DNA from: a virus
Virus genome (UHGV): UHGV-0318153
Reading direction: 5' to 3' (one strand)
DNA: 64,000 bases
The notes beneath the pieces are model-generated. The model did not search any database. It worked only from the letters and a program-made list of their open reading frames with translations, and was not told where the DNA came from. Positions 31,065 through 63,994 of the stretch are shown piece by piece. The translations under genes and the position numbers were made by a program. How positions within the stretch are numbered: position 1 is the stretch's first letter; each line of letters starts with the position of its first letter.

Positions 31065-31487
31065 ATGGTAACTTTTAATTTCTCTTTATCTGCTATTAAG
31101 AAAAAAGAGAAAAATAAACCTAAAACTAATGTAGTAACAACTGTTGAAGGTATTGTAGCTATTGTTAATAATGAATATAAATTAAAAGTTGATAATAGTT
31201 TATATGATATTGATAAAAATAGTATTGCTACTAAAGGAAAACGAATTATTTATGCTAAAAGATTAGATGAACGTGGTCATAGAATAAAAATAATTCGTAA
31301 TGGTGAAGATACTTTTGATGTTGGTTCTGAATATTATTCAAGTATTGCTATAGGTTTAAAAGTTAAAGCTAATGTTTCTATTATTAATAATAAGAAAGTA
31401 TGTGCTATAACTAAAATTTATCATGATACATTATTAAATGATATTGAAATAGAAACAATAAAAGAAATGTTTTTTGAATATGATTAG
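31065..31487 (+). CDS. hypothetical protein (140 aa) with the N-terminus MVTFNFSLS shared with the homing endonucleases
   Basis: ORF. Confidence 0.5.
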   Translation: MVTFNFSLSAIKKKEKNKPKTNVVTTVEGIVAIVNNEYKLKVDNSLYDIDKNSIATKGKRIIYAKRLDERGHRIKIIRNGEDTFDVGSEYYSSIAIGLKVKANVSIINNKKVCAITKIYHDTLLNDIEIETIKEMFFEYD

Positions 31488-32913
31488 TTTAGACCAAAAA
31501 GCCGTCAAACCTAATTTTACTCCTAGTCAAGAAAAAGCTGTCGATAATATAATAAGTTTTATAGCTGAAGATTTTAATAAACTTAAAAATGTTCAAGCAT
31601 TATCTGGCGCAGCAGGGTGTGGTAAAACTTTTGTTACAAATTATATAATTGAGCATAGTAAATATAGTTCAAGTATGTTTTATCTTGCTGCTCCAACACA
31701 TAAAGCTTGTCGTATATTATCTAACGCTACAGGAGGTAGAAAAGTAACTACTATACAAGCTGCTTTTGGGTTTAGACTTGATACTAATATTGAAGATTTT
31801 GACCCAAATTTACCTGCTTTTAAACCTATTGGTCCGCCTAAAGTTGCTAATGTAAAAGTTCTTGTTGTTGATGAAGCTAGTATGCTTAATAAAGCATTAG
31901 TTACTTATATTAATAAATACTGCGCTGATAGAAAAATTAAAGTTCTTTATATTGGTGATGCAAATCAGCTTAGTCCTGTAAATGAGAAAGTTAGTACTGC
32001 TTTTAAAAATGCTTATAAAATTAGTGAACTTAAAGAAATTGTACGACAAGAAAAAGATAATCCTGTTACTGAATTGTTGGCAATGCTACGTGATGATATA
32101 AAACATAGAACATTTAATTTTCTTAGTTATATCTATAAAAACAGAGAAAATATAAATGGTGATATTGGATATAAAGTATATACTCGTCAAGAATTTACAA
32201 ATGTTGTTATAAATAAATTTTCTGATGAAAATTTTGCAACAAATGTTGATTTATATCGTATGGTAGCATATACTAATAATGCTGTATCTTATTGGAATAA
32301 AGTTATTCGTCAAACTATTGTTCGAAATGCTGATAAGACTATAATTAATAGAAATGATTTGATAATGTCTTATACAACTATTGTTGATGATTTTAATGAT
32401 ATTATTATTAATAATAGTGAAGAATACATTATTAAAGATATAGTTAATTATGAAGATGAAACTTATAATTTTAAAGGTTTTATGATAAAGTTTCAAGCTA
32501 TACATGGTGGAGCTGTTACTAAGCCTTTATTTGTTATAAATCATTTTGATGCTTATACATTGAAAACATATTGTGATGAGGTAAATTATCTTATTAATAA
32601 AGCAAAAAATGCTGATACTAGTACTCGTTCTTCTTGTTGGAAGAAATATTATGAGTTTAAGAGAAAGTATCTTTTGCTTGAAAATGTAGTTGATTATGCA
32701 GGTAAGATTATTATTTCAAGAGATATAGATTATGGATTTGCTTTAACAAGTCATCGAAGCCAAGGTAGTACTTATGATAATGTATTTGTTGATATAAATG
32801 ATATGTGTTATGATAAGAATGGAAATCCTTATAATGATATTTCAGAATTATTACGTAGGTTATATGTAGCTTGCAGTAGATGTAGGAATAAATTGTATAT
32901 ATGCTACGGATAA
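31474..32913 (+). CDS. SF1B DNA helicase, Dda/RecD-like (479 aa)
   Basis: Walker A GAAGCGKTF, Walker B VVDEASML, and C-terminal motif ALTSHRSQGSTYDNVFV. Confidence 0.8.
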   Translation: MNMISLDQKAVKPNFTPSQEKAVDNIISFIAEDFNKLKNVQALSGAAGCGKTFVTNYIIEHSKYSSSMFYLAAPTHKACRILSNATGGRKVTTIQAAFGFRLDTNIEDFDPNLPAFKPIGPPKVANVKVLVVDEASMLNKALVTYINKYCADRKIKVLYIGDANQLSPVNEKVSTAFKNAYKISELKEIVRQEKDNPVTELLAMLRDDIKHRTFNFLSYIYKNRENINGDIGYKVYTRQEFTNVVINKFSDENFATNVDLYRMVAYTNNAVSYWNKVIRQTIVRNADKTIINRNDLIMSYTTIVDDFNDIIINNSEEYIIKDIVNYEDETYNFKGFMIKFQAIHGGAVTKPLFVINHFDAYTLKTYCDEVNYLINKAKNADTSTRSSCWKKYYEFKRKYLLLENVVDYAGKIIISRDIDYGFALTSHRSQGSTYDNVFVDINDMCYDKNGNPYNDISELLRRLYVACSRCRNKLYICYG

Positions 32914-32914
32914 A

Positions 32915-33445
32915 ATGTTTTATATGACTGTTGATACTTGTGTTCATTGTCAGCATTGTATAAATAGAATGTTTAATATTGGTCGTATTATTGATATTGG
33001 CATAGGATGTATAACTTCTGATATTGTTATTCTTTTGCCTATGTATGGTAATAAGAATTTTCGTAATAAATTATTAGAAGATTTAAAAGCTATTTGGCTT
33101 GAATATACAGGACGAAATATGCTTGAACAATGTTACATTACATATAATATTAAATGTTCTACTTATAATTGTTCATACAAACTTTATGAGAATAGTATGA
33201 GTAATTGTCGTAATATATTGAATGAAGAACTTATGAGAGTTCCTTATAGATATATGATTATGATTAATTCTACTCGTACTATTTTTCCTAATGGTTGTTC
33301 TAATAAGATTATCAATTATGGAAAGTATTGTTTTTATAATATAAAATTTCCATTTGATAAATATGATGAAGCTGAGGTAAAGAAAGCTATAAAAACAGAT
33401 TTTGTTAATGCTATAAAATATTATAATATGAGAAGATATACATGA
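32915..33445 (+). CDS. Cys-rich hypothetical protein (176 aa)
   Basis: ORF with an N-terminal CVHCQHC cluster. Confidence 0.5.
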   Translation: MFYMTVDTCVHCQHCINRMFNIGRIIDIGIGCITSDIVILLPMYGNKNFRNKLLEDLKAIWLEYTGRNMLEQCYITYNIKCSTYNCSYKLYENSMSNCRNILNEELMRVPYRYMIMINSTRTIFPNGCSNKIINYGKYCFYNIKFPFDKYDEAEVKKAIKTDFVNAIKYYNMRRYT

Positions 33446-34725
33446 TAAGAATAGAATGTTATGATGTGGAAGTACTTCCTAACTTTTTTAGTATTTGTTT
33501 TATTGATTTAGCTAGTTATCTTGATACTTTTAAAGATGTTGTAGATAGTAAAGGAAAACCAATTCCTATTATCCAAAAAATATCTGTTAAAGAGTTATTA
33601 CAAAGACTTGATGCTGTAAAATGTAAACAATTTTATATTACAGATAAAGATGATAGTCAGTTATTTTCAATGATAGAATATATTAATGGATTTAAAGCTA
33701 ATGAACTTTATCCTCGTAGTGATTTATATGGTTATAATAGTCAAAGTTATGATAATCTTATGATTGCTGCTTTATTAATGTATTTTGGTCAAACAGATAC
33801 TACAAAAGAACTTATTACAAAACTTTATGAAACATCAAAAAAGATAATTGAATTACAAGACAATAAAGATGGTGCTAAGAATGATTTTTTATTAAGAAGT
33901 TTGAGAAAATATCCATTACCATTTAAAGGTGTAGATGTTATGAAAATATTTGCTTTGAATAAAGCTGGAACTATTGTTGATAATAAAACTGGAGAAAAGA
34001 AATATGTTCCTAAAGGTTTAAAGCAAACTAGTATTAATCTACAATGGTATGAACTTCTTGAATATGAGTTACCTGATATATGTGATAAAGATTATTACTA
34101 TTATGCAAAAGATACAAGATATAAAGGTTATGATTATAAAAAGCTCACCAATATAATTGATAAATGGGATAGATATATAATAGATGAATATATTCCAGAT
34201 ATGATGCATTATAATAAAAATGATGTATTTATTGTTTGTGAAATTGTTCGTCTTAATCCCGATGAAATTAAATCTCGATATGCTGTTTCTGCTTCTTATA
34301 AAGTAGATGTTCTTAATAGTAGTCGTAGTAATATGGCTAATGTTTTATTTCAAAAGTTTTACACTAAATATAGTGGTATTCCTTATGAAAAATGGAAAGA
34401 TGGAAGAACTAAAAGAACTGCTATGAATTTAGGTAAGATTATTTTTAATTGTGTTGAATTTAAGACACAGCAATTACAAGACTTACTTAAAGAAATAAAA
34501 AAGACTACATTATATAGAGTTAGCAAAGATGCTTTTGAGAAAGAAGTTATTATTGGCGATGTTAATTATACTCTAGCTACAGGTGGACTTCATAGTAAAG
34601 ATAGACCAATGGAGATATGGAGTACAACAGATTGGGATATATCTGGCAATTCCTCTACGGGCAAGCTACAAAAAGATAATGCTTTTACAATTATACATTG
34701 GGACATAAGTGACGCAGTGTCGTAA
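33442..34725 (+). CDS. DNA polymerase family B, exon 1 / N-terminal part (3'-5' exonuclease domain through the first half of motif A)
   Basis: Exo I YDVEV, Exo II YGYNSQSYDNLMI, Exo III YNKND. It ends ...HWDISDAVS* immediately before the expected LYPS of motif A. Confidence 0.75.
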   Translation: MIRIECYDVEVLPNFFSICFIDLASYLDTFKDVVDSKGKPIPIIQKISVKELLQRLDAVKCKQFYITDKDDSQLFSMIEYINGFKANELYPRSDLYGYNSQSYDNLMIAALLMYFGQTDTTKELITKLYETSKKIIELQDNKDGAKNDFLLRSLRKYPLPFKGVDVMKIFALNKAGTIVDNKTGEKKYVPKGLKQTSINLQWYELLEYELPDICDKDYYYYAKDTRYKGYDYKKLTNIIDKWDRYIIDEYIPDMMHYNKNDVFIVCEIVRLNPDEIKSRYAVSASYKVDVLNSSRSNMANVLFQKFYTKYSGIPYEKWKDGRTKRTAMNLGKIIFNCVEFKTQQLQDLLKEIKKTTLYRVSKDAFEKEVIIGDVNYTLATGGLHSKDRPMEIWSTTDWDISGNSSTGKLQKDNAFTIIHWDISDAVS

Positions 34726-35774
34726 TCTCGTGAACTGCTGGAAACTCCTAAAGCTGTTATTACTAAAACAGAAGATGAAAATCTAAATGGCAATAGTTAC
34801 GAAAGTAGAAAAGAAATAACAGATGATATATGGAATAATATTCCTAAGTATTTTAATAATGGACAATCAGCAGCTAAGACTACTCATTATATTGCGAAAT
34901 ATAATAATAGTAAAGTTCATCGACTATCCGAAAGGAGTACACATTGTTGATAAATGTGGAAGTGCGAGAAATCTTGTTAATAATATTGCATTTTGAAAAA
35001 TTAGATATTATCTTTGTCTATATGTTTAATTTTTAATAATATTGATTATGGTAAAATTTAATTTTTCATTAGTTAAAAAAGAAGTTTATGGTGTTGTTAG
35101 AGGTAATGGTGTTATTCCTTATGGAGATTTAGCAAAATACTCTAATGTTATTGGTGTTTATTATATTAAATCTAAAACTACTAATAAACAATATATTGGA
35201 AGTAGTAAAAATGTACAAAGACGTATTGGAAAACATTTTAGTGAATTAAAATATAATAGACATAGAGATAAAGATTTGCAAGAAGAATATAATTTATATG
35301 GATATTCTAATTTTGAATGCGGATTATATGAAACTTGTAATATAAATGAACTTCTTATTAAAGAAAAAGAATGGCAAATTAAAATTGGAATAGATAATCT
35401 TTATAATCAGAAAATCTCTGGATATTATATTACAGAAGAATTAAGACAAATTCATGCTAGAGCTGATAAAAGTTCACATAAAACTAAAGAATATAGAGAA
35501 AAAATGAGTAATATAAAAAGTAATTATATAGCTCAATATAATCTTGATGAAACTTTAATTAAAATTTGGAATAGTTCTAAAGAAATATGTGATACTCTAG
35601 GTTATACTAGAAGTGTAATATTATGTGGATGTAATGGTAGTAAAAAACATCCTTATGGTTATTATTGGAGATATTGTGATAGTAAAGGTAATTTATTAGA
35701 AAACGGTAGAAAAGGAAAACAAGATTAAGATATAGTCAGGTTCATAGTGAAAGCTATGATGTTAATGTGCGTCT
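34723..35774 (+). mobile_element. Group-I-intron-like intervening sequence (~1.05 kb) splitting polB at motif A. It carries a GIY-YIG homing endonuclease ORF.
   Basis: Exon 1 ends DAVS and the downstream in-frame sequence resumes (S)YYPSIM after a stop codon, with no ATG. Joined, they give the DxxSLYPSIM-like motif A. The 5' flank is GC-richer, and a gtgYcgt sequence occurs at both junctions. Confidence 0.5.
35048..35728 (+). CDS. GIY-YIG homing endonuclease with a C-terminal NUMOD1/IENR1-like DNA-binding motif
   Basis: GVYYIKSKTTNKQYIGSSKNVQRRIGKHFSEL (GIY...YIG...R...H...E...N). C-terminal LIKIWNSSKEICDTLGYTRSVILCGCNG. Confidence 0.8.
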   Translation: MVKFNFSLVKKEVYGVVRGNGVIPYGDLAKYSNVIGVYYIKSKTTNKQYIGSSKNVQRRIGKHFSELKYNRHRDKDLQEEYNLYGYSNFECGLYETCNINELLIKEKEWQIKIGIDNLYNQKISGYYITEELRQIHARADKSSHKTKEYREKMSNIKSNYIAQYNLDETLIKIWNSSKEICDTLGYTRSVILCGCNGSKKHPYGYYWRYCDSKGNLLENGRKGKQD

Positions 35775-36812
35775 TATTATCCTTCAATTATGGCTGCATA
35801 TAGTGTTGCACCTGCTCATATGGTTACTAGTGCATTTCGTAATCTTATTCAATGGATGAAAGATACTCGTGTTACTGTAAAACATAGTGAAGAAGCAATT
35901 ATAGATGGTATTCCTAAAGATGTCCTTGCACTTGTATTAAAAATTGTCATTAATAGTATATATGGTAAATTTGGAGATGAAAATAGTCCACTTTATGATA
36001 GACTTGCTACTCTTCAAGTTACTATAAATGGTCAATTAATGATTCTTATGCTTTGTGAAGAACTTGAACTTAATGGTATTCATGTATTGTCAGCTAATAC
36101 AGATGGTATTATGGTTAAGTTGTATGAGAAAGATAAAGAATTATTTAATGATATAGCTGATAGATGGCAAGAAAAAACTAAAATGAAAGCAGATGCTGAT
36201 ATTCTTCATTGTCTTATAGCAAGAGATATAAATTCGTATATAGCCTTATTTAGAGAAGAAAAGAAAGGAGTTAGAAAATTAAAGACAGAATTTAAAGGAG
36301 CAATGAATCCAGATATGTATCGTATTGACTTACAAAAAGGATATGATAAACCTATTGTTGCTAAAGCTGTTTATGAGTATTTTATTAATAAAGTTCCTAT
36401 AATGGAAACTCTTCAAAAAGCTACTAATATTCTTGATTTTTGTATGACTCAAAATGTTGGTAGACAATTTCATGTTGAAGAAACGAAAATTGTTAATGGA
36501 ATGCTTACACGAATAGTTTGTCAGCGATATGTTAGATTTTATATTAGTAATGATGGATATACAATAGAAAAAGTTCATAATATTACTAATAGTAGGTCAA
36601 GAATGGCAGCTGGAGTTAAAGTTTGTGTTGTTAATACTTTGGATGATACTAATATTAGTTTAAGGAATATTGATTTTAAATATTATTATAATGAATGTAT
36701 GAAATTAATAGACCCAATTAAGTTAGGTATTACTCCTAAAGGTAAAGGAAAAAGTAAAATTCGAAAATTTAGTGGAATGTATAATACTTTATTTGATGAT
36801 GTAGATGAATAA
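35772..36812 (+). CDS. DNA polymerase family B, exon 2 / C-terminal polymerase part (second half of motif A, motifs B and C)
   Basis: YYPSIM, then KIVINSIYGKFG (KxxxNSxYG, motif B), then LSANTDGIMV (motif C region). The first ATG is at 35790; the true 5' boundary depends on splicing. Confidence 0.65.
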   Translation, partial: SYYPSIMAAYSVAPAHMVTSAFRNLIQWMKDTRVTVKHSEEAIIDGIPKDVLALVLKIVINSIYGKFGDENSPLYDRLATLQVTINGQLMILMLCEELELNGIHVLSANTDGIMVKLYEKDKELFNDIADRWQEKTKMKADADILHCLIARDINSYIALFREEKKGVRKLKTEFKGAMNPDMYRIDLQKGYDKPIVAKAVYEYFINKVPIMETLQKATNILDFCMTQNVGRQFHVEETKIVNGMLTRIVCQRYVRFYISNDGYTIEKVHNITNSRSRMAAGVKVCVVNTLDDTNISLRNIDFKYYYNECMKLIDPIKLGITPKGKGKSKIRKFSGMYNTLFDDVDE

Positions 36813-52960: not shown

Positions 52961-55900
52961 TTATTTTCTTATCCATTCACCTATTTTTTTAACAGGTATA
53001 ACAGACAAAGCATTATCTCCAAGTTTATAATAACTGTTATTATCAGGCAATTCAATAATACGTTGTATATTACGATATACAGGTATATTTCTACCAATTA
53101 TAACTTTAAGTTTATTTTCTCCAGCATAACGACCAGTTTTATATTCTCCTTCAAATCCATTATCAATCAATGTTTGAACTCCAAATGCTAATCCTTTTAA
53201 TAAATCATCACCACTTTGCCATATAGCAACAGGACTAGACCAAAGTTTTTCACCTTCACTAGCAAGACCAATAGGAGTAAATGCAAATGCTTCTGAAGCA
53301 AGTCTATCAGCCTGATACATTAATAAATTATACCAAATACTTTCTTCATTATCTTTATCACCTCCAGCTATTGCAGTCAAAGCAATTGCAGTAACTACAG
53401 CAGCACCTGTATAAACAAAATCAGCATAAGCACGTCTAATATTAGCACGTTCATTTTCTGATAATAGATTATAATTAAGTTTAATATGAGTAATAAAACT
53501 AATAGCATTTTTACAATATTCTTGTATAGCTTGTAGTGTATCAAGTTCTTCTTGACTGCGTTTATATTTAGTTAAATGATAAGGAGTATTAATAAATTGC
53601 ATAAGACTATTATAAGCACCTTTTTCAATAGTTTCTAATACTTCATCATAATAACCATGTCGTCTATATCTTTTCTTAAATCCAGGATATAGATGTTTAT
53701 GGAATTGCATTACAATACCACCCCACCATTCATTTTCAATTTTAGCAGCACCAATTTTATCATATACACCATGAACTTTCTTATTAACTTTGATAACTTT
53801 TTCTACAAGTTTTGCAAAGTCTTTGAGTTCAATATCTGCATCAGCTTTTAGATTTGCATAATCATCAACAAGTTCAAATTGACTATAAACATCTGGCAAT
53901 TCTTCAAACTTTTTCTTTGCTTCTTTCATCAACTCTTTACGTTTTCTTACAAATTCAATCATTCTTTCTTTTGTAAGATGTGTTCTAATAAAATCTGTTA
54001 TAACATTATCATTAAACATATTATAATTAGCACGTCTATTTTCATCAGCAAGAATATCATTAAAGAATTTATCATAAGCATCACGTTCTTCTTCATTCAG
54101 TACAATCATTAATGCTTCTAATTCTTTTTCTCGTTTAAACATTTCAAACGATACTATTTTAACATTACCATCAGCATCTTTAATTATACGATGATTTTTC
54201 ATCATTGTCAAAAGAACAGTATTTTGCATATAATGTTCACCAGCAGTTTGTGGAGTAAATAACAAACCTCTTAACTTCTTTATATTACCTTTTATATCAT
54301 TAGCTGTCAATTCTGCTATTCTATCATAATCAACAACATTTGCCAGTTTTATAATACCATCTTGTAATGTAGTAGATTTATCATTATACATATTAGACAT
54401 ATAACTAATAGCACCACCAACATAAAGATTTTGACCAACTATCCAATCTTTCTCATTAAAGTATTCTCTAGCAAATCTTTCTGCTGCAAGGTTAGTCTGA
54501 CCTGTAAGAATATTTGCAATACCACCAGTAATATTTAACATCATATATTTAGTACCAGCCATATTTTGAGCAATACTAGCAAACTTTAATAACTGTGGAT
54601 TGGTATTATTTTTATAAGTATCTCTTACAACTCTACGAATATAATTTCTTAATTGAGCAGATGTATTGCGATTACTTTCAGTTTTATATTCAACTTCACT
54701 TTCTGCACTTAATCTATAATCTTGTATTAATTCATTTTTATAATTAAGTTTATAAGCATCATAACTCAACAAAGCATCATCAGCTGCATATAATTTACCT
54801 TTAATTAATCTAATAGCATCATATCTAGCACTATTTATTATAAACGATTTAAATACATTTTCCCAATCTTTATTGATTAATTGATTATGTATCTTTTCAT
54901 TTTCTTCTCTTATCTTAGCATTAACATCTTTAGCTTCTTGTTTACGTTTAATAAATTCAGCTTCACTTTCACCAGGTTTAGGAAAATGAGGAACTTCAAC
55001 ATATTTAGAACTATTTCTATCCAATAACATTTGCAACATTGGATTATCTTTTTCTTCATCAGTATTATAAGTTATATTTTCCAAATCTTGCCATTTAGTA
55101 TCAGTAGGAATATTAGAACTAATACCAATAAATGCCATAGCTTCTTTAAATATATCTTTATAATCAAATTCTTTTTCTTTACTAATAGAAGGAAGATAAC
55201 CTTGTTTTACATAATATTTATTACTATCAGTAAAAGCATATTGCATCATTATCTTCTTTAGATTATTCAACAATTTTAATTCATATTCATTTAATGCTTT
55301 ATAATTAGAATTATCATAACTTACTTCTTTACGAGTTCCATCTTCTTGCTTAGCTTTATATGTACTACCTTCTTTATAAGTTGGATAATTCTTATCATAT
55401 TTCTCATTAAGATAATCTTTATTAGGTTCTAAATCTGTCTGATTAATTCTAGCTTCCCATTTACCTTTAGCTTTATTACCGCTTTCATCTATATATTCAG
55501 TATGTGTCCATATTTTTAATGGTTCATATTGACGACTATAAGGATTATAATAATGATTATCAAAATACCATTTTTTAAATTCTTCTTTACTCATATTATC
55601 TCTATTAGTTCTCATAACTTCATAATAATATTGAGTTTTAGTATTTTGAACGTGTTTATTAATCAATCTTATATAATCAGTTTTATTTTTATTAACCCAT
55701 TTACTTTCATCTTTAGGTTTAAGAACGCCATAGAATATTGTATTAGGAACAACATTACCTTCATCATCTACAGTTTCAAATACTTTTTTCCATGCTTGAT
55801 ACCATTCATCACCATTTTTGTATGCTCTTGCTCTATCTGCTTCATAAGCCGCATTATTATATGTAATAACACATTCTTCAGCAATAAATTCAGCAGCTTT

Positions 55901-58900
55901 TTTATTTTTAGTTTTATCAAGGTCATACAATTCTAACAACTTAGACAATTTATTCAAATCATCCATAGTAAGTTTATCACTACCTGTATTAAGCACTCTA
56001 GCTGTACTATCCCAAACCTTATCAAGAATTTTATTAATTGCTTCTATATCTTCTATTTCATCTTCTGATTTAACTTTATCGTTTCTTAAATTATCATAGA
56101 ATTCATATTCATAAATAACAACATCATCATCTTGACTTCTTAATATACCAGCATAAGGTAAACCACTTCTTTTACTAAAATGAAAATTACGAACAGTTTC
56201 TTTTTTAATTCGTTCTATTTGTTCAGCTGTAAATTTTCTACCATCAAGAATACCAAATTCATCACGAGCATTTGCTTGTTCAATAGCAATATTTAAAGCA
56301 GAAGTTTTACTAATAGTTGGGTCATTAAATGCAGTCAAGCAAGCATTGATTTCATTAATAAAATCAGCATCTGGTTTATACATCGCATTAGCTCTCAACC
56401 ATGCTTTAGCTTTTCTATATTCTTTATTTTGCATAAGAATATTCATTGGAATAAGAAGTCGTCCTTCATGGTCACGAGCACCTTCAATATCAGATATTGT
56501 CTTTAAAGCATTATTAAGTTGTTCTTCAAAACCAACTTTAATATTTCTATCAAAGAATAATTCTTTTAAATATCTATTTCTATCAATAAATGCGTATAAT
56601 GTTCTAGCAGCGGTTAAATCTTCATCATCTTTAATTTCATAATTATCATCAAAGTCAGAAGTCATTAAACGAAGTTTAAGATATATTTGATGTATCTTTT
56701 CATCTTGTTCTTCTGTTGGAGTATTACCAATTATATTACTTAATATATCAGATTGTTCTTTCATTAATCTTTTATATTCAGCATATAATTCAGCAACTTT
56801 TGGATTTTTATTATATAATACAGCGTATTGATTAGCAATAGTTTCTCTTGTATAATCAACCATTACTTCATTACCATCAATATCAATATCTTTAATGGGA
56901 ATAAATTGTGATTCTGTAGTTGCAGCTATAAATGCATCATATTCTAATTTAGCTCTTAATGCCTTAACACTAAATTTATCTTTTGTTTCATCTACAGCTT
57001 TAATATATTCTTTATTAAGTTTGTCTTTCATTTCAAACCATTCTTTATTATTTGGCTGAACAAGACGACCATTTTCATCAACAATTTTATTCCAATCAAT
57101 AGATTTACCATTTTTAGCAGCTTCAGCTTTTAAATCAGAAAGCATTTTAGCAAATTGTTGTGCTTCAATTTTACCTCTAAATTCTCCTTCTTTAATAATA
57201 GCTTGACTTTCACCAACAACAGCTTGAACTAATTGATTATGATTAAATGCAATATCTTGTATATTCAAATCAAAAAATCCTGTATCTCCATAAAATGTAA
57301 GAGCATCTTGTAATCCAGATTTAATATTAGGATTAGTAGTGCTACTATTAATAAATTCTCCCCAATAACTTCTTTTAGCTTGAAGTACAATAGTATCATT
57401 ATTCAATTTATTAATAGCTTCTTTTATAGTTTCTAATGCTGCTTTTGTATCTTCATCATAACCTTCAATATTAATATCTCTAAATGAATATCTATCTTTA
57501 AACGATGTGATTGTATTAATAAGAGTAATAAACTTACGTTCAAGATTATTATCTTTCAACACTCTTTCTATAACTCTAGCATCATTTAATTTCAATTCAT
57601 TGCCATCTTCATCAATAGTAAAATGATAAGCATCATATATTAATCTATCAGCAGTAGCTTTTACAAATTTAGCAACAGTAGAAGAAGCAACAGGAAGATT
57701 ATTGGCGATTTCTTTTGTATCTTTATAGTTAATATTAGCATTATTAAGTATCTTCATCATACTTTCAGCTAATTTATTACCGCCAAAACTTTCTTGTCTA
57801 GCAATAGCAACTGTTTGTTTAATAGCAAAACTAGCTGCATCACGTTCTCCAATGCTACTATATCTTTTGCCATATTCCACTACGGGCAAGATACCGTAAT
57901 CACTTTCTGGTTTATAATTAGGATATTCATCAAGAAAATCAATATAATCTTGATAAAGATTACTAGTATTTCCTCTAAGTCTATCGGCTACTTCTTCTGT
58001 AATTTTTGTAGCAACATATTTCTTACCATTTATAGCATTATTTATTATTAATTTATCTCCTGTAAATCCAGTATTACGAAGAATTAATTGCGGTTTATCA
58101 AAGAAATTATTATTTGCAATAGCTAATGCTTCGTTTATGTTATTTGTTTCATCTATAGTTATTTCTGTAGCACCAACAAACTTATCTTTATATAAAGCAT
58201 ATTGTTCAGCAAGTTTTTCACTTTTATATCCATATACAATATCAAATAAAGATTTATATACATTGTTACGAGCAATTGAACTATCTTCTATTGTTTTATT
58301 GGTATCAATTTCATCAAGTTTGTTTAATGGATAATATGTAACATCTTCTATATGATTAATACCATAATATAATTTTGCTGTATTACCACGTCTAATTTTT
58401 ATTATCTTATAAGCTTCATCTTTATTCAATAATCCTAATTTATTAAAATCTTTTGTATTAGCTGTATCATATGTATAAACAGTTATTGAACCATCATTAT
58501 TAAATTCAATATCTTGAGCATGATTTACATTTTTCTTTATAATTTTATCTACATCTACAAATCTGGCAGGAAAATCATCATAATTTTGACGAACAAAACC
58601 AATAATTAATTTTTCTGAAACATTTGCAGTTGGTGTAATAAATCTATAATTATCAAAAGCTAATTTAGTACTAAATCCAATATTCATACCACCAACATTA
58701 GTAGGTTTTAATGGTAAAGTAGAAATAGCACGAGCAATATTACCAACTTTAAAATTATTTCCTTCTACAACATAAGTATATTTTACTAAATCTATTGCAG
58801 CTAATCTAATAATTGGATTACTACTTAAATAAGCTAAATCAAATAAATCATATAAATAATCATTTGTATAATTACCTTGATTAAGTTTAAGTTCATTTGA

Positions 58901-61900
58901 TATATAACCTTTTTGCTTAATAGTAAATTCATTAAATTTATTTACTGATATAAAATCAAATATACCTATATTATCAAAATTCTCTTTAATATAAAGAACT
59001 TTTTGAGCAGGACTTAATTTAGCAAAGGCTAATACTTCTTCTTTAGTTGGATTATTAATATCAGCTATTTTAAAATCAATATTTTTAGTATATTCACTTC
59101 CAATACCAGCAATTCTAGACATTTCATTTTCAATATCTATCTGTAGCTTGCCCGTAGAGGATTGCTTGATTAATACACTACCATCATCATCTAAAGCAAT
59201 AGGATATATAATAGCTGGATTATTATCATTTACATATAATCTCTTAACTAAATATTTTTTATAATCATTATAAAGTTTTTCTGATAGTTTTCCATTTTTT
59301 GTATATTTAGCTATATCATATATAAGTTCTACAAAATTAGGCTCTGCTGTTTCAAATACTTGTTGTCCAACTTTCAATGCAGTAACAGAAGAATATTTCA
59401 ACATAGCAGCAAGAGAAGGATAACTACTATTTTTAATATCAGATTTAGCAAAAGTATTTATACCTTTACTAATACCAGGATAAATAGCTTCAACTACTGG
59501 AACTATTTCACCTTTTTTATTTTCAGCATATAGTTTATTATCATTTGTCAATATATCATCTATTTGTCTAAATATTCTATCTGTAGCATAATAACTAGGT
59601 TTAGCACCAAATTTATCTGCTGTCAATATACTAAGAGTATTATTAACAATACTACCTAATTGATTTAGTTTATTAAATTGCAGAAGAACCATAAAATCAT
59701 GTATCTTCTTTTCTTCTTCTGTCATTTCATTACTAAATCGTTTTACATTTAATTCTCTATCAATAATAGGAAAACCTACATCACCATAAACATTTGTTAT
59801 ATACCCTTTTTCATTATATTTACGATAAACAGCAGAAGCTAAATCTGACATATTTTTACCATCAGTTGTAATCCCCAAAGCAGTAGCAGCGTCATCAAGA
59901 GCTTTTGATAAAGGATTAATATATTCACTATTAGCAAATGATTGACTTTCATTCCAATACTTAACAAGATTATCCATAGCAGGTTGATACATAAAACTAA
60001 TAGCAGTCTTATAATCAATACCAGCATTAATCATAACTTTGAAGGCATTAAATGTATAAGTATTCTCATTATGAATAGCACCTTCTTTCATAACATCAAG
60101 AATATGTGCTGTAGTTTGAGAACTATAAGGAGTTAAAAGATAACCTTCAACATTTTTATTATCTTCACTCCAACCTTGATTTGTAAAATTAATTACGTTA
60201 TTTTCAACTTTACCAAATCTATTTTTTTCTCCTATCTTTTGTTTATCTATTGTTTCTTTATCATATCTAACAGGTATAGCAAACGGCAATCTTATTTTTG
60301 TTCTATTACCAATACTAGCAAATGTATCAAGATTAACAGATATAGCTTTAAGTTTAATACCAGAACTAGCAGATTCTTTCCAATCTAATTGAGTAACAGC
60401 ATCATGATTACCATAAGATTTATCATCAATAACATATTTATTACTAATATTAGCAATCTTCTTCATCCAACTATTAGCTTCAGCAAGATTACTAAATTGA
60501 GATATACCCATATTTTCTTCAAAAGCAGCAGGACTATTAAGAATGTCAATAAAAGTCTGAACTATATTATTATTTCGTACATCTCTACTCACTCTTTCCT
60601 CTACGGGCAAGCTTAACCAAGATACATAATTAGGAAGATTATTATCATTAGCAAACTTTTCAGCTTCATTTAATTGTTCTTTAGTATTTTCTTCAATAAC
60701 ATCTTTTATTTTATTTCTATTAGTTTCGCTTAAAGCAACATTATCATCTTCTTGACTATCAAATAATTCTTGAGTTGCTATATAAGTATCATAAACATTA
60801 TCAAGTATTTTTGTTTGATTTTGTATTTCTCCACTTTCTTTTAAATTATATAGTCTTTCTATAGCAGAATCTATATATTCTTTAGAAGAAATACCATCTT
60901 CTTTTTTACCAATAGCTTGAATTATTTTATGAAGTTCTTTATCTTTAGTTTCTTTTGCTAATTGATATATATTATATTTATCTTTAAATCGATTATCTAA
61001 TGATTTAAGAATTTTAGCTTGATAATCTTCATTTAATTTTTTTCTATCTTCTTTTTCTTTATCTTTAATAAATTTAATAGAGCTTTCTATTTGACCATTA
61101 TATTTACTTAATGCTTTTCTAGCAGCCATACCGACATTATCTTTAATATATCGAATATAGCCTTTTTCATTTAATGGATAATCATTTTCTGTTGGTTCAA
61201 TAACTTTTCCATCTTTATTTAATGTTATATGTTTAGTCATTGCATAAACACTATCAACGTCAAAGTCAGAACCTGTTTGTGTTACCCATTCATCTGGAAC
61301 TACAACTGTACTACCATAAGCATCAGGAAGAAATTCTACAACTTTCATTATAACAATAGATTGTTTACCTTCTGTTGGAATACGATAACCAATCATTGTT
61401 CGTAAATCTTCAGGAACTTCATTAATGTCTATTGGTATTTTCTTTGTTGTTCCATCTTCTTGTTTTATTGTTCTATATAAAGCATTGCTCCATCTTTTTA
61501 ATCGAATTTCAGCATAATAAACAGGAATACCATTTATTTCACCTTGTTTTCTATATTCAAGTTTATGATTATGTTCAGCTTCATGATTTGCAAGATATTC
61601 ACTATCTTTTACTGTATCTTTATCTACAGTAAATCCAAAATCTGATAACTGAGCAGCGTGCCATCCTTCAATAGTTTGACGAGTAATACGTTTATTAAAT
61701 AAAGCATTAGTAACATTTTCAAGTTTTGTACTAACATTATTCATAATTAATGGAAGTTGGTCACTGCCTTCAAGAGCGGTATCAAGAAATTCCATAAGAA
61801 CTCTATCTGCTCCATTTTTTGCCATATTTTCTTTAACAAGCTGCAAGAATACTTTTCTATTTAAACCAACTATAGCACCATCTTTAAGTTTAATATTGCC

Positions 61901-63994
61901 ACTATTATCTAATTCTATTCCTAATTCTGTAGCAACTTCAACAAAACTTTGTTTAATATTAGCTGTATAGTTATTAAAGAATTTATTAACAAGATTATTA
62001 TGATGTTCATCGTTTGGAAGATTATCCAACATCTTCTTTAATATCTGAATACCAGCTTTGTTTTCTTCATCAACCATATGTTCAGGAACTTCTTGCTGAC
62101 GATATAAATAATTATAGCTATATGGTTCAATAACATCTCTAGCTTGTTCTTTAAATTCATCAAGATGTATATTTCCATCATTATCCCATAAAGTTATAAT
62201 ATTATGATTAGCAGCTTTTGAAGTTTCAATAGTATTTAATTGGTCAATACCAATTTCTTTCATTGCATTATAAACTTGTTCAAGTTCTGTTCCTTTAATA
62301 AGTTTTGGCAATAAAACAAATTCAGCATTTTTAATTTGTCGAGGAACTTCAATACCTGTTTTAGTATCATAATATAAATCATAATAGAAGTTCTTTTGTA
62401 TCGGAACTTTATTTTCAAAAGCAGTCCAATCTATTTCTTCAATAGGAGTATCATTTGTTAATGCTTCTATAAGACTAGCATATTTATTTAATTCTCCAGC
62501 AGCAGTAATTCGTCTTATCCATTCTTCTTGAGTAATATAAGACTGAGCATCATTAGTCTTTGTTTTTTCATCTTTAAATGGTTTCAACAAACTAGCTTTT
62601 GTTTCTTCTGATAACTTGGCTTTATTTAATTGTTTTTCAAGTCTATCGATTACTTCTTGTTTTGATGTTTTATTTGTATTATAAACTGTAACAGCTTTAA
62701 ACTTATCATAAAGTTTAATTGGTTCTTTTGTTGTATAATCTATTACAGCTTTTTTACCATCAGCAGTTGGCATATCTATTGTTTCTTGTACAATTTTAGC
62801 AGGGTCTGTACTAGTTCTAGTAAAATCTACAACTCCAAATGGAGAACCACCAGCTTGAATTTCTTTTAATCGTTTAAGAACATCTTGATTACCTTTATAA
62901 AACTTACTCTTTCCGTTAAATAAATGGTCATAATTAACTTGATTTATAATAGTATTAATAAGATATTCTCTTATATTTTCATCAGAGAAATTTTCCAAGA
63001 ATGTACTAAATTCTCCACGAAGATAATTTGTAGCATTTTTAAGATAACTATCAAGATAAGTTTTAATAGTTTCATTAATTGCATTATCTACAATAGATTG
63101 ATAATTTGTATCAAATACAATTTTACCATTTTCAACTTTTACTCGTTTTTCTCTATCACCATATAATACATCAATAACCTTACCATTACCCATAAGATTA
63201 TGATAAAGAGAAACATCAGCAAATTTACTATTTAAATCAGATAGTTTAAATACAGCTCCTGTTAGAACATATTTTCCATCTACTATGTCATAAACTTTAC
63301 CATTTCTATTTTTTTCATAATTCAAATATAATTCATTAGCATTATAATCATCTTTAAGAACAAGTTGTCCTTCTGACATTATAAGATTACCATTAGCATC
63401 TTCTTTAAATATTCTTCTAGCAGAAGTATAAGCATCAAGAATTTCTTGATAAATAATATTTCTTAAAGCATCAACTACTGGATGGTTAATATCAAATTCA
63501 ATACCAATATTTTGACGTTGTAATAAATATATTTGATTATTAATATAAGCAAGTTTACTATTATTTACTTGAGTTTTAGTAACTTGACCGTCACTAATTA
63601 AGCCTTTAATAATAGCATTTGCCAAATAGAATTGTCCATTAATTTCTTTTAATTGTCCTGTAATAGCATATTTTGCTCCATGTTTATCAACAAAAGCAAA
63701 ACTAGGAGAATTATTTCCAACTTTATAATATTTATTTACATCAACAGGAATATTAATTTTTTCTCCATTAATCAAATCAACAAGATTTTTTGAACTAATA
63801 ATATTTAATTTATTAGTCAGCCAATCTGTATATTTTTCATCTTTTAAATCTATTACATTTAAAGCATTTACTTTATTTGTTGCTTCTTGTCTAAATTTAT
63901 TATATTGTTCTTCATTATATTTATAAAGACCATCTAATGATAATATTGGCATAGTAGCAACAAAAGTTTTAGGAGCATCTGAAGGAATACTCAT
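52961..63994 (-). CDS. Giant virion RNA polymerase-like protein, crAss-type (3677 aa)
   Basis: Single uninterrupted ORF. The DFDVD motif (GSDFDVDSVY, encoded at ~61253-61267) matches the NADFDGD-type catalytic metal-binding loop of the RNAP DPBB domain. It contains four in-frame copies of the dispersed repeat. Confidence 0.85.
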   Translation of the reverse strand: MSIPSDAPKTFVATMPILSLDGLYKYNEEQYNKFRQEATNKVNALNVIDLKDEKYTDWLTNKLNIISSKNLVDLINGEKINIPVDVNKYYKVGNNSPSFAFVDKHGAKYAITGQLKEINGQFYLANAIIKGLISDGQVTKTQVNNSKLAYINNQIYLLQRQNIGIEFDINHPVVDALRNIIYQEILDAYTSARRIFKEDANGNLIMSEGQLVLKDDYNANELYLNYEKNRNGKVYDIVDGKYVLTGAVFKLSDLNSKFADVSLYHNLMGNGKVIDVLYGDREKRVKVENGKIVFDTNYQSIVDNAINETIKTYLDSYLKNATNYLRGEFSTFLENFSDENIREYLINTIINQVNYDHLFNGKSKFYKGNQDVLKRLKEIQAGGSPFGVVDFTRTSTDPAKIVQETIDMPTADGKKAVIDYTTKEPIKLYDKFKAVTVYNTNKTSKQEVIDRLEKQLNKAKLSEETKASLLKPFKDEKTKTNDAQSYITQEEWIRRITAAGELNKYASLIEALTNDTPIEEIDWTAFENKVPIQKNFYYDLYYDTKTGIEVPRQIKNAEFVLLPKLIKGTELEQVYNAMKEIGIDQLNTIETSKAANHNIITLWDNDGNIHLDEFKEQARDVIEPYSYNYLYRQQEVPEHMVDEENKAGIQILKKMLDNLPNDEHHNNLVNKFFNNYTANIKQSFVEVATELGIELDNSGNIKLKDGAIVGLNRKVFLQLVKENMAKNGADRVLMEFLDTALEGSDQLPLIMNNVSTKLENVTNALFNKRITRQTIEGWHAAQLSDFGFTVDKDTVKDSEYLANHEAEHNHKLEYRKQGEINGIPVYYAEIRLKRWSNALYRTIKQEDGTTKKIPIDINEVPEDLRTMIGYRIPTEGKQSIVIMKVVEFLPDAYGSTVVVPDEWVTQTGSDFDVDSVYAMTKHITLNKDGKVIEPTENDYPLNEKGYIRYIKDNVGMAARKALSKYNGQIESSIKFIKDKEKEDRKKLNEDYQAKILKSLDNRFKDKYNIYQLAKETKDKELHKIIQAIGKKEDGISSKEYIDSAIERLYNLKESGEIQNQTKILDNVYDTYIATQELFDSQEDDNVALSETNRNKIKDVIEENTKEQLNEAEKFANDNNLPNYVSWLSLPVEERVSRDVRNNNIVQTFIDILNSPAAFEENMGISQFSNLAEANSWMKKIANISNKYVIDDKSYGNHDAVTQLDWKESASSGIKLKAISVNLDTFASIGNRTKIRLPFAIPVRYDKETIDKQKIGEKNRFGKVENNVINFTNQGWSEDNKNVEGYLLTPYSSQTTAHILDVMKEGAIHNENTYTFNAFKVMINAGIDYKTAISFMYQPAMDNLVKYWNESQSFANSEYINPLSKALDDAATALGITTDGKNMSDLASAVYRKYNEKGYITNVYGDVGFPIIDRELNVKRFSNEMTEEEKKIHDFMVLLQFNKLNQLGSIVNNTLSILTADKFGAKPSYYATDRIFRQIDDILTNDNKLYAENKKGEIVPVVEAIYPGISKGINTFAKSDIKNSSYPSLAAMLKYSSVTALKVGQQVFETAEPNFVELIYDIAKYTKNGKLSEKLYNDYKKYLVKRLYVNDNNPAIIYPIALDDDGSVLIKQSSTGKLQIDIENEMSRIAGIGSEYTKNIDFKIADINNPTKEEVLAFAKLSPAQKVLYIKENFDNIGIFDFISVNKFNEFTIKQKGYISNELKLNQGNYTNDYLYDLFDLAYLSSNPIIRLAAIDLVKYTYVVEGNNFKVGNIARAISTLPLKPTNVGGMNIGFSTKLAFDNYRFITPTANVSEKLIIGFVRQNYDDFPARFVDVDKIIKKNVNHAQDIEFNNDGSITVYTYDTANTKDFNKLGLLNKDEAYKIIKIRRGNTAKLYYGINHIEDVTYYPLNKLDEIDTNKTIEDSSIARNNVYKSLFDIVYGYKSEKLAEQYALYKDKFVGATEITIDETNNINEALAIANNNFFDKPQLILRNTGFTGDKLIINNAINGKKYVATKITEEVADRLRGNTSNLYQDYIDFLDEYPNYKPESDYGILPVVEYGKRYSSIGERDAASFAIKQTVAIARQESFGGNKLAESMMKILNNANINYKDTKEIANNLPVASSTVAKFVKATADRLIYDAYHFTIDEDGNELKLNDARVIERVLKDNNLERKFITLINTITSFKDRYSFRDINIEGYDEDTKAALETIKEAINKLNNDTIVLQAKRSYWGEFINSSTTNPNIKSGLQDALTFYGDTGFFDLNIQDIAFNHNQLVQAVVGESQAIIKEGEFRGKIEAQQFAKMLSDLKAEAAKNGKSIDWNKIVDENGRLVQPNNKEWFEMKDKLNKEYIKAVDETKDKFSVKALRAKLEYDAFIAATTESQFIPIKDIDIDGNEVMVDYTRETIANQYAVLYNKNPKVAELYAEYKRLMKEQSDILSNIIGNTPTEEQDEKIHQIYLKLRLMTSDFDDNYEIKDDEDLTAARTLYAFIDRNRYLKELFFDRNIKVGFEEQLNNALKTISDIEGARDHEGRLLIPMNILMQNKEYRKAKAWLRANAMYKPDADFINEINACLTAFNDPTISKTSALNIAIEQANARDEFGILDGRKFTAEQIERIKKETVRNFHFSKRSGLPYAGILRSQDDDVVIYEYEFYDNLRNDKVKSEDEIEDIEAINKILDKVWDSTARVLNTGSDKLTMDDLNKLSKLLELYDLDKTKNKKAAEFIAEECVITYNNAAYEADRARAYKNGDEWYQAWKKVFETVDDEGNVVPNTIFYGVLKPKDESKWVNKNKTDYIRLINKHVQNTKTQYYYEVMRTNRDNMSKEEFKKWYFDNHYYNPYSRQYEPLKIWTHTEYIDESGNKAKGKWEARINQTDLEPNKDYLNEKYDKNYPTYKEGSTYKAKQEDGTRKEVSYDNSNYKALNEYELKLLNNLKKIMMQYAFTDSNKYYVKQGYLPSISKEKEFDYKDIFKEAMAFIGISSNIPTDTKWQDLENITYNTDEEKDNPMLQMLLDRNSSKYVEVPHFPKPGESEAEFIKRKQEAKDVNAKIREENEKIHNQLINKDWENVFKSFIINSARYDAIRLIKGKLYAADDALLSYDAYKLNYKNELIQDYRLSAESEVEYKTESNRNTSAQLRNYIRRVVRDTYKNNTNPQLLKFASIAQNMAGTKYMMLNITGGIANILTGQTNLAAERFAREYFNEKDWIVGQNLYVGGAISYMSNMYNDKSTTLQDGIIKLANVVDYDRIAELTANDIKGNIKKLRGLLFTPQTAGEHYMQNTVLLTMMKNHRIIKDADGNVKIVSFEMFKREKELEALMIVLNEEERDAYDKFFNDILADENRRANYNMFNDNVITDFIRTHLTKERMIEFVRKRKELMKEAKKKFEELPDVYSQFELVDDYANLKADADIELKDFAKLVEKVIKVNKKVHGVYDKIGAAKIENEWWGGIVMQFHKHLYPGFKKRYRRHGYYDEVLETIEKGAYNSLMQFINTPYHLTKYKRSQEELDTLQAIQEYCKNAISFITHIKLNYNLLSENERANIRRAYADFVYTGAAVVTAIALTAIAGGDKDNEESIWYNLLMYQADRLASEAFAFTPIGLASEGEKLWSSPVAIWQSGDDLLKGLAFGVQTLIDNGFEGEYKTGRYAGENKLKVIIGRNIPVYRNIQRIIELPDNNSYYKLGDNALSVIPVKKIGEWIRK

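Follow-up and report, generated by a model that had tools for sequence, protein, structure and literature searches.

A group I intron carrying a GIY-YIG endonuclease gene very probably interrupts motif A of a crAss-like phage DNA polymerase gene

Group I introns with homing endonucleases interrupt the replicative polymerase genes of Bacillus phages SPO1 and SP82 (I-HmuI/II) and of Staphylococcus phages, where the polymerase is of family A and the endonuclease an HNH nickase. The td intron of phage T4 carries its endonuclease gene in the P6 region. Among crAss-like phages, group I introns have been described in PolB of the Delta (Suoliviridae) and Zeta groups, where they were recognised through their endonuclease domains (Yutin et al. 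2021, PMC7886860; review PMC10136315), while the alpha-gamma group was described as being without mobile-element insertions (Yutin et al. 2021, PMC7886860). The locus analysed here shares virus order, host gene and kind of element with the Delta and Zeta cases, but is Alpha-type.

The window is a 64,000-nt stretch of the virus genome UHGV-0318153. Its PolB gene (33442–36812) is broken at motif A by ~1.06 kb bearing an intact GIY-YIG endonuclease gene, and 34707–35767 is, on the sequence evidence below, very probably a mobile, self-splicing group I intron with this homing endonuclease inside it. A sequence-only reading had already proposed that a group I-like intron with a GIY-YIG gene interrupts motif A, a proposal borne out by a ribozyme core that covaries and a predicted ligated product that matches intron-less homologues. 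Its limits for the insertion, 34723–35774, do not hold. The predicted features are as follows.

33442–34706, + strand: PolB exon 1 (open reading frame, tblastn to crAss PolB, splice enumeration)
34702–34721, + strand: P1 hairpin (sequence, compensatory change in relatives)
34707–35767, + strand: very probable group I intron, 1061 nt, IA-like (RF00028 half-matches, the twin L138, covariation)
34723–34725, + strand: in-frame UAA 17 nt into the intron, in J1/3 directly before P3
34726–34969, + strand: ribozyme 5' core (RNAalifold, pair counts, and the minimum-free-energy fold of the twin, which reproduces the helices), with P3 34726–31/34964–69; P4 34736–41/34867–72; P5 34746–48/34861–63; the P5 extension, comprising P5a 34754–61/34814–22, P5b 34773–84, P5c 34798–807 and an extra hairpin 34832–44; P6 34873–75/34914–16; P6a 34879–82/34908–11; P7 5' strand 34922–26; P7.1 34927–29/34934–36; P7.2 34940–58
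34970–35726, + strand: P8, AAUCUUGUU (34970–78) with AACAAGAUU (35718–26), with the endonuclease cassette in loop L8
35048–35728, + strand: GIY-YIG homing endonuclease gene, 226 aa (Pfam, phrog and I-TevI structure matches)
35727–35767, + strand: intron 3' part, with J8/7 AAGAUA (35727–32), P7 3' strand UAGUC (35733–37), P9 hairpin 35741–48/35753–60 and the 3' tail to omega-G 35767
35768–36812, + strand: PolB exon 2, opening with UGCGUC (35768–73), the P10 partner of the guide

The intron lacks P2, has a large P5 extension and places hairpins 34927–36 and 34940–58 where IA introns have P7.1 and P7.2. All conserved core elements are intact, including an exact AAGAUAUAGUC across J8/7–P7' and a conserved J3/4–P4, and the same UAA stands in J1/3 of five relatives (L001, L075, L142, L138 and L140). 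Across 12 relatives, 97.5% of pairing cells form a pair, as against 32–45% when the partners are slid, and compensatory changes on both sides occur in 30 of the 47 core pairs; none of 500 shuffles reached the observed values. P8 keeps its position across all relatives while its sequence differs, and it shows double changes in nine of nine pairs, a count biased in its favour in that the helix was located in the mini-intron alignment via a complementarity search. P7 and P7.1 are invariant because the relatives were found through the P7 pattern, and so carry no covariation signal for or against; P7.2 lies outside the covariation count.

At the gathering threshold of Rfam RF00028 (50 bits) nothing in the window matched, nor did a scan of the whole window at E ≤ 1 return any match. 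Focused cmscan with this model gave two half-matches, at 34726–34969 (21.8 bits) and 35647–35759 (20.6 bits), which align P3–P7–P3' and P8'–J8/7–P7'–P9; an Infernal/Rfam search of the insertion thus finds the intron in two pieces, each below threshold. The intron falls short because ~740 nt sit in L8. Its endonuclease-less twin, L138, matches the full model with 46.3 bits (E 9.8e-11), 3.7 bits under the threshold, and ORF-less homologues exceed it (L075, 67.4 bits; L080, 53.8; L013, 98.5; cr271_1, 51.7).

For the splice sites, all U/G combinations were enumerated. Ten are in frame, eight of these break the spacing of motif A, and only two restore DxxSxYPS. We place the predicted junction at the canonical group I pair U34706/G35767, with the 5' splice site after U34706 and omega-G 35767 as the last base of the intron. 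Here, P1 joins GACAU at the end of the exon (34702–06) to GUGUC (34717–21), with a U34706·G34717 wobble at the splice site, and its loop contains a guide, GACGCA (34711–16), that pairs perfectly over 6 bp with the 5' end of exon 2 as P10. P1 and P10 add up to 11 base pairs, which covary with the exon codons in three lineages: P1 reads GACGU/GCGUC in L001, L075 and L142, an A-U to G-C compensatory change, and P10 (UGCGUC/GACGCA in the window) reads GUCGUC/GACGAU in L001 and UUCGUC/GACGAA in L142. P10 is also present in the minimum-free-energy fold of L138. The predicted ligated junction is ...CAUUGGGACAU|UGCGUCUUAUUAUCC... (RNA GACAU|UGCGUC), and the predicted protein reads ...FTIIHWD-IA-SYYPSIMA..., of which DIASYYPSIMA has the same residues in the intron-less cr110_1 and L127–L135 and in most intron-less relatives, so that product and intron-less homologues agree at each residue spanning the junction. 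Neither an empty-site allele with exactly these flanks nor a cDNA with the predicted ligated junction was found in viral and metagenome contigs.

The second combination, U34710 and G35771, would give HWD-IS-SYYPS; it likewise restores the spacing, and DISSYYPS does occur in some intron-less relatives (L136, L137). We nevertheless reject it as very unlikely because no P1 can form: 34711–34725 holds no guide complementary to AUAAGU, whereas the 34706/35767 pair has its covarying P1 and P10. The nearest intron-less homologues, moreover, have DIAS.

The earlier reading had found the junction ambiguous, without a canonical U/omega-G pair; such a pair exists 16 nt upstream of its 5' site. With that shift, the three details that it had thought unusual vanish. 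The second of these, a gtgYcgt sequence at both junctions, is only approximate (GTGTCGT 34717–23, GTGCGT 35766–71), one copy being the P1 3' strand and the other omega-G with the P10 exon strand. The third, ~70 codons left open past the exon-1 stop, is correct as a count (74 sense codons, 34726–34947), and the stretch is unusual by shuffling (P ~0.0002 for that frame, ~0.01 for any frame). As a coding sequence it was rejected: only 24 codons are open in the homologous L001 intron, no Pfam model matches and all of it lies within conserved helices. The open reading frame 33442–34725 does end ...IIHWDISDAVS before TAA, but SDAVS is intron kept in frame by chance; motif A is accordingly not DAVS-YYPSIM, with 'DAVS' an in-frame translation of intron sequence in the P1 loop and guide, and splicing would give DIASYYPS. 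A GC-richer 5' part of the insertion is marginal (28.4%, against 23.2% in the endonuclease gene and 27% in the window).

Sequence comparison identifies the host gene as a single family B DNA polymerase gene of a crAss-like, Intestiviridae-type phage. Exon 1 encodes the N-terminal part with the exonuclease and runs to the catalytic Asp codon of motif A (34702–04) plus 'AU' of the next codon, and exon 2 finishes motif A (I-A-SYYPSIM) and bears motif B KIVINSIYGKFG and motif C (SANTDG); splicing rebuilds D(34702–04)-I-A-S-Y-Y-P-S. The spliced coding sequence of 2310 nt has no internal stops and predicts a 769-aa polymerase, which is covered 100% in one piece by cr110_1 at 70.8% identity (tblastn) and matches PF00136 with 26.6 bits (cut-off 23). 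It aligns with Thermococcus PolB over family B motifs A (DxxSLYPS), B (KxxxNSxYG) and C (DTDG), in order, motif A of the archaeal enzyme aligning across the junction. The Pfam scan detected no exonuclease domain in PolB, where the exo motifs were recognised only by eye. Both exons are under purifying selection (dN/dS of the spliced polB sequence 0.19 versus L140). The phage itself is related to Intestiviridae/Crudevirinae, and Alpha-type: its nearest PolB comes from that group, and the gene order UDG–PolB–SNF2 is the same as in p-crAssphage.

A polB gene split by endonuclease insertion into two separately translated, assembling polypeptides, with no splicing, had been offered as an alternative to the intron. 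That a stop codon ends exon 1, that the intron scores under the Rfam gathering threshold and that public annotations of cr3_1 and cr271_1 list two 'DNA polymerase' CDSs would all suit it. The model follows the split gp43 of some T4-like phages, in which two polymerase-coding segments likewise flank an endonuclease gene. Each gp43 half, however, is translated from a start of its own, and a ribozyme is absent, whereas the second half here has no usable start: its frame, which contains motifs B and C, is open only from 35766, being closed by TAA 35763–65, and the first ATG (35790) falls within motif A, which would cost the product SYYPS. The catalytic Asp and SYYPS would then sit on separate chains, a complete covarying ribozyme with guides matched to both exons would have no role, and L138, L075 and cr271_1 are interrupted although they have no endonuclease gene there. 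We consider a split polymerase highly improbable.

Still less credible, and barely worth entertaining, is a decayed, non-splicing intron remnant in a phage that is defective or uses another polymerase. Its sub-threshold Rfam score, its large and unusual P5 extension and the absence of P2 could be taken as signs of decay, but P2-less introns of the same family pass Rfam, the conserved core is intact, selection acts on both exons and three independent contigs carry this intron. An intein is dismissed by the stops at 34723 and 35763 and by an endonuclease in its own ORF.

The group I intron thus remains the preferred reading, and the gene in its P8 loop is, as first reported, a complete GIY-YIG gene. 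The ORF spans 35042/35048–35728, with a stop UAA (35726–28) that overlaps the end of P8 and J8/7 and an ATG that is conserved in L001 and L142. The product matches PF01541 (38.6 bits, E 1.3e-9, cut-off 22.6), phrog_314 and phrog_5123, and the catalytic domain of I-TevI (1mk0, E 7.7e-10; 1mk0/1ln0, E ~1e-9). With the I-TevI catalytic residues (Tyr of GIY and YIG, Arg27, Glu75 and Asn90) as reference, GVY, YIG, Arg (QRRIGKHF) and Glu (EKEW) align, and the Asn90 position is Tyr. No Pfam model matched the C-terminal DNA-binding part. The gene is under purifying selection (dN/dS 0.15 versus L140). An I-TevI-style operator, a conserved element 5' of the gene acting as a homing-site mimic, was rejected, with ungapped matches no better than shuffles (P 0.6–1.0, five lineages), and the window holds no further intron copies or endonuclease paralogues.

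From established group I chemistry, we infer how splicing, endonuclease activity on its target and homing may proceed. Ribosomes on the polB pre-mRNA that pass exon 1 would be halted by the UAA at 34723–25, ahead of the ribozyme core, which would fold into P3–P9 with the P3/P7 pseudoknot. Exogenous guanosine would attack 3' of U34706, which the guide GUGUC holds in P1 via the U·G wobble, and the freed 3'-OH would attack 3' of omega-G35767 while the adjacent guide GACGCA holds UGCGUC of exon 2. The ligated mRNA would encode the 769-aa polymerase with motif A as HWD-IA-SYYPSIM. Where a co-infecting relative has an intron-less polB allele, the endonuclease would cleave that allele close to motif A, and repair from the intron-bearing copy would spread the intron. 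The element would, in all, work as textbook phage introns do.

The twin in L138, a near-identical phage, lacks 35005–35715, so that the endonuclease is polymorphic in presence and absence among introns that are 98–100% identical. Window and L140 gave no clear excess of identity in the intron as a sign of horizontal transfer (intron 95–98%, exons 93–95%). We lean, if only slightly, towards a single, radiating lineage of IA-type introns without P2 that is actively mobile in Alpha-group (Intestiviridae-like) crAss phages from the human gut, with at least five sites in replication genes of relatives (PolB motif A here, 2 nt upstream of it, just after PolB motif B and two in a Dda-like helicase) and with the endonuclease gained or lost between ~99% identical genomes. 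If so, this would contradict the published view of alpha-gamma crAss phages as being without mobile-element insertions, and would offer a natural system in which to follow homing in the human-associated virome.

Exact splice sites allow the predicted 769-aa polymerase to be annotated correctly. Interruptions of this kind in crAss-like PolB stand in public records as two 'DNA polymerase' CDSs (cr271_1, cr3_1, MT838267 and MT837219, with or without a 'homing endonuclease', none annotated as an intron), Rfam defaults miss the intron in the window, and in-frame read-through of a P1 loop can mimic a lost motif, here as 'DAVS'. Alpha-type crAss phages would join the groups with mobile group I introns, with a recent gain or loss of an endonuclease documented.

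Among these records, MT838267 (L001) has a homologous intron, with a homologous endonuclease (57% amino acid identity), inserted at exactly the same nucleotide. Motif A of cr271_1 is interrupted by an ORF-less group I intron 2 nt upstream of the window's site, directly after the Asp codon, and in cr3_1 and MT837219 PolB is interrupted at a far-downstream site. Relative to the published Delta and Zeta cases, the ribozyme, splice sites and guide pairings have here been worked out. Like T4 td with I-TevI, the window combines a core with putative P7.1/P7.2 and the same J8/7–P7' signature, a free-standing GIY-YIG gene in a peripheral loop, an early in-frame stop past the 5' splice site and an insertion site in a strongly conserved part of a nucleotide or DNA metabolism gene. 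The two differ in host gene (family B polymerase in the window, thymidylate synthase in T4), and in that the window's intron is without P2, has a large P5 extension and carries its endonuclease in the P8 loop.

The window comes from the genome of a crAss-like phage in which a uracil-DNA-glycosylase-like ORF, PolB and an SNF2-like ATPase follow one another, as they do in p-crAssphage (Carjivirus communis) and in cr110_1, a Delmidovirus (Intestiviridae/Crudevirinae); on PolB and gene order, we assign it to the Alpha type. A minus-strand ORF of very large size (52961–63994; 3677 aa listed) ends near the window end, as would be expected of the gene block for the virion RNA polymerase of crAss phages. 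The 64 kb contain no tRNA genes.

The three reading frames that the sequence-only reading had described in the interrupted polymerase gene were present: an ORF at 33442–34725 ending ...IIHWDISDAVS*, a GIY-YIG ORF at 35042/35048–35728, and a downstream polymerase frame that lacks a start at its beginning, being open from 35766 with its first ATG (35790) inside motif A. A focused Rfam scan placed the 5′ strand of group I intron helix P3 at 34726, immediately 3′ of the TAA; P1 and the guide therefore lie upstream of 34726, within the apparent end of exon 1. The pairings found there were as follows.

34702–34706 with 34717–34721: P1, GACAU/GUGUC, with a U34706.G34717 wobble
34711–34716 with 35768–35773: P10, guide GACGCA (adjacent to the P1 strand) perfectly complementary to UGCGUC, which is immediately 3′ of G35767

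Enumeration of in-frame U/G combinations found that 2 of 10 restored DxxSxYPS spacing. The pair 34706/35767 gives ...FTIIHWD-IA-SYYPSIMAAYS, and intron-less cr110_1 (motif A region FTILHFDIASYYPSIMAYYG; GATAT/TGCTTCATATTATCC around the insertion point) has GAT AT/T GCT at the same nucleotide position, as most other intron-less relatives do. The other spacing-preserving pair, 34710/35771 (product DISS), was rejected as it allows no P1. We are highly confident of an intron with the former junction, spanning 34707–35767 (1061 nt), with a predicted ligated junction (34706/35768) of 5′-ACAAUUAUACAUUGGGACAU/UGCGUCUUAUUAUCCUUCAAUUAUGG-3′. ‘SDAVS*’ is then the P1 loop and guide read through in frame. 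The earlier proposal of a DAVS–YYPS join thus gives way to DIASYYPS, as in cr110_1, and the canonical U/omega-G pair that had seemed missing is U34706/G35767, with P1 and P10. The likeness of the ‘gtgYcgt’ sequences at both junctions is accounted for, one being the P1 3′ strand and the other omega-G plus the P10 exon strand.

We aligned 12 relatives, removing the interior of loop L8 where it bore an ORF. RNAalifold predicted P3, P4, P5, P6, P6a, P7.1, P8 and P9 unaided; with P7 added, standard pairs occupied 97.5% of cells, compared with 32–45% when partners were slid, both-sided changes occurred in 30 of 47 pairs, and none of 500 shuffles reached the observed values. Two points limit these figures: P8 was located by complementarity, although its place was always directly 3′ of P3′ and directly 5′ of J8/7, and P7 and P7.1 were invariant in this set. 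P1 and P10 co-varied with the exons in three lineages sharing one site.

P1, P10 and spliced motif A at the shared site
Window: P1 GACAU/GUGUC; P10 UGCGUC/GACGCA; DIASYYPS
L001 (MT838267) and L075: P1 GACGU/GCGUC; P10 GUCGUC/GACGAU; DVSSYYPS
L142: P1 GACGU/GCGUC; P10 UUCGUC/GACGAA; DVSSYYPS

DVSSYYPS, the spliced product of L001 and L142, is the motif A of intron-less L139. The pairings, their covariation and the ligated product can be read in the sequences themselves. The co-variation with the exons and the match to L139 give the best support for a functional guide. In L001, a frameshift or deletion splits PolB exon 1 into two overlapping frames at 856–881, which may be an assembly error.

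The Rfam group I model RF00028 matched both parts of the core separately, from P3 to P3′ (34726–34969, 21.8 bits) and across P8′, J8/7, P7′ and P9 (35647–35759, 20.6 bits, including an exact AAGAUAUAGUC), but with about 740 nt lodged in the P8 loop, the window stayed below the gathering score. A near-identical phage, L138 (exons 96–99% identical), carries an intron 98–100% identical to that of the window without 35005–35715, the endonuclease gene:

932–1284 of L138/L149 (IMG/VR_UViG_3300045988_098176): endonuclease-less intron, a presence/absence polymorphism of the endonuclease

Scored against the full model, this natural 353-nt mini-intron reached 46.3 bits (E 9.8e-11), narrowly short of the threshold of 50, and its minimum-free-energy fold gave P10, P3, P4, P5 plus extension, P6, P7.1, P7.2, P8 and P9. 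ORF-less relatives passed the threshold (L075, 67.4 bits; L080, 53.8; L013, 98.5), as did the intron of cr271_1 (51.7). The run of about 70 open codons noted after the exon-1 stop is real (74 codons, 34726–34947, in frame with exon 1) and unusual by shuffling (P ~0.01 for any frame), but we treat it as chance: it had no family match, is not conserved in the L001 homologue (open for 24 codons), and coincides with P3–P7.

Spliced polB matched crAss PolB genes in one piece (best cr110_1, 70.8% identity with 100% query coverage) and reached Pfam DNA_pol_B, and its motifs A, B and C aligned with Thermococcus PolB. Its dN/dS was 0.19, so selection maintains the polymerase, a result that fits poorly with a remnant unable to splice. 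A decayed intron is accordingly contradicted, by this purifying selection on the host gene and by the intact core. A polymerase split into two polypeptides is contradicted as well: the second half would have no usable start, the catalytic Asp would be parted from SYYPS, and L138, L075 and cr271_1 keep the interruption although it contains no endonuclease gene in any of them. Stop codons exclude an intein. The polB intron would instead be removed by standard group I splicing, and its endonuclease would then mediate homing; splicing chemistry, endonuclease target and mobility are presumed from what is established for group I introns and enzymes of the I-TevI type.

The GIY-YIG gene at 35048–35728 is complete, as first described, encoding 226 aa (Pfam, 38.6 bits), and falls in PHROG homing-endonuclease families. 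Its ATG is kept in L001 and L142, and the end of the reading frame, stop included, overlaps the P8 3′ strand and J8/7. In the alignment to the catalytic domain of I-TevI (E 7.7e-10), the two Tyr, the Arg and the Glu are conserved and the Asn90 position is Tyr. Its dN/dS relative to the L140 copy (contig 110116) is 0.15, so selection maintains it. About 30 nt upstream of the ATG, an element at 35001–35016 (TTAGATATTATCTTTG) is conserved in the three endonuclease-bearing lineages (window, L001 and L142); the window version includes TATCTTTG, which resembles TAnnTTTG, the −7 promoter element of Bacteroides. The conserved element may serve the endonuclease gene as a promoter of its own, and showed no likeness to the homing site.

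A P7-motif scan of viral contigs found 120 stretches, 82 of them followed within 1.8 kb by a J8/7–P7′ motif, so this family of group I introns in phages is large; the exact window intron occurred in only two IMG/VR contigs, of which one has the endonuclease and the other lacks it. The Dda-like helicase gene just upstream (31474–32913, phrog_325) is uninterrupted in the window; its orthologues in L028/L036 and L033/L080/L082 carry same-family introns at two different sites (...AHKS/QGST... and ...LYIG/D..QLPPV...), with matching P1/P10 at each. A third insertion site lies just 3′ of PolB motif B (KIVINSIYGKxG/) in L054 (10812–11900) and L147 (IMG/VR); the equivalent position in the window, ~35970, is uninterrupted. 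In cr271_1 (L005, NC_055887), an ORF-less group I intron (1757–2127) directly follows the codon for the Asp of motif A, at a point 2 nt upstream of where the window is interrupted, and RefSeq lists its polB as two separate ‘DNA polymerase’ CDSs. Compared with L140, the exon stretches of 100 nt that flank the window intron (34607–34706 and 35768–35867) are 87–89% identical (one Ser codon is TCA versus AGT), more diverged than the rest of polB (93–95%) or the intron (95–98%), and may be co-conversion or recombination tracts.

Group I introns with homing endonucleases are classical in phage polymerase and nucleotide-metabolism genes, as in T4 td/I-TevI and the SPO1 polymerase. Among crAss-like phages, they have been described in PolB of the Delta group, with many in the Zeta group, whereas alpha–gamma genomes were said to lack mobile-element insertions (Yutin et al. 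2021, PMC7886860); a 2023 review (PMC10136315) repeats what was found for Delta and Zeta. PolB is also interrupted in the public Intestiviridae records cr271_1 and cr3_1, annotated only as two CDSs. Our additions are modest: a ribozyme and its junction worked out, and evidence for an intron family that is radiating among crAss phages of the Alpha type.
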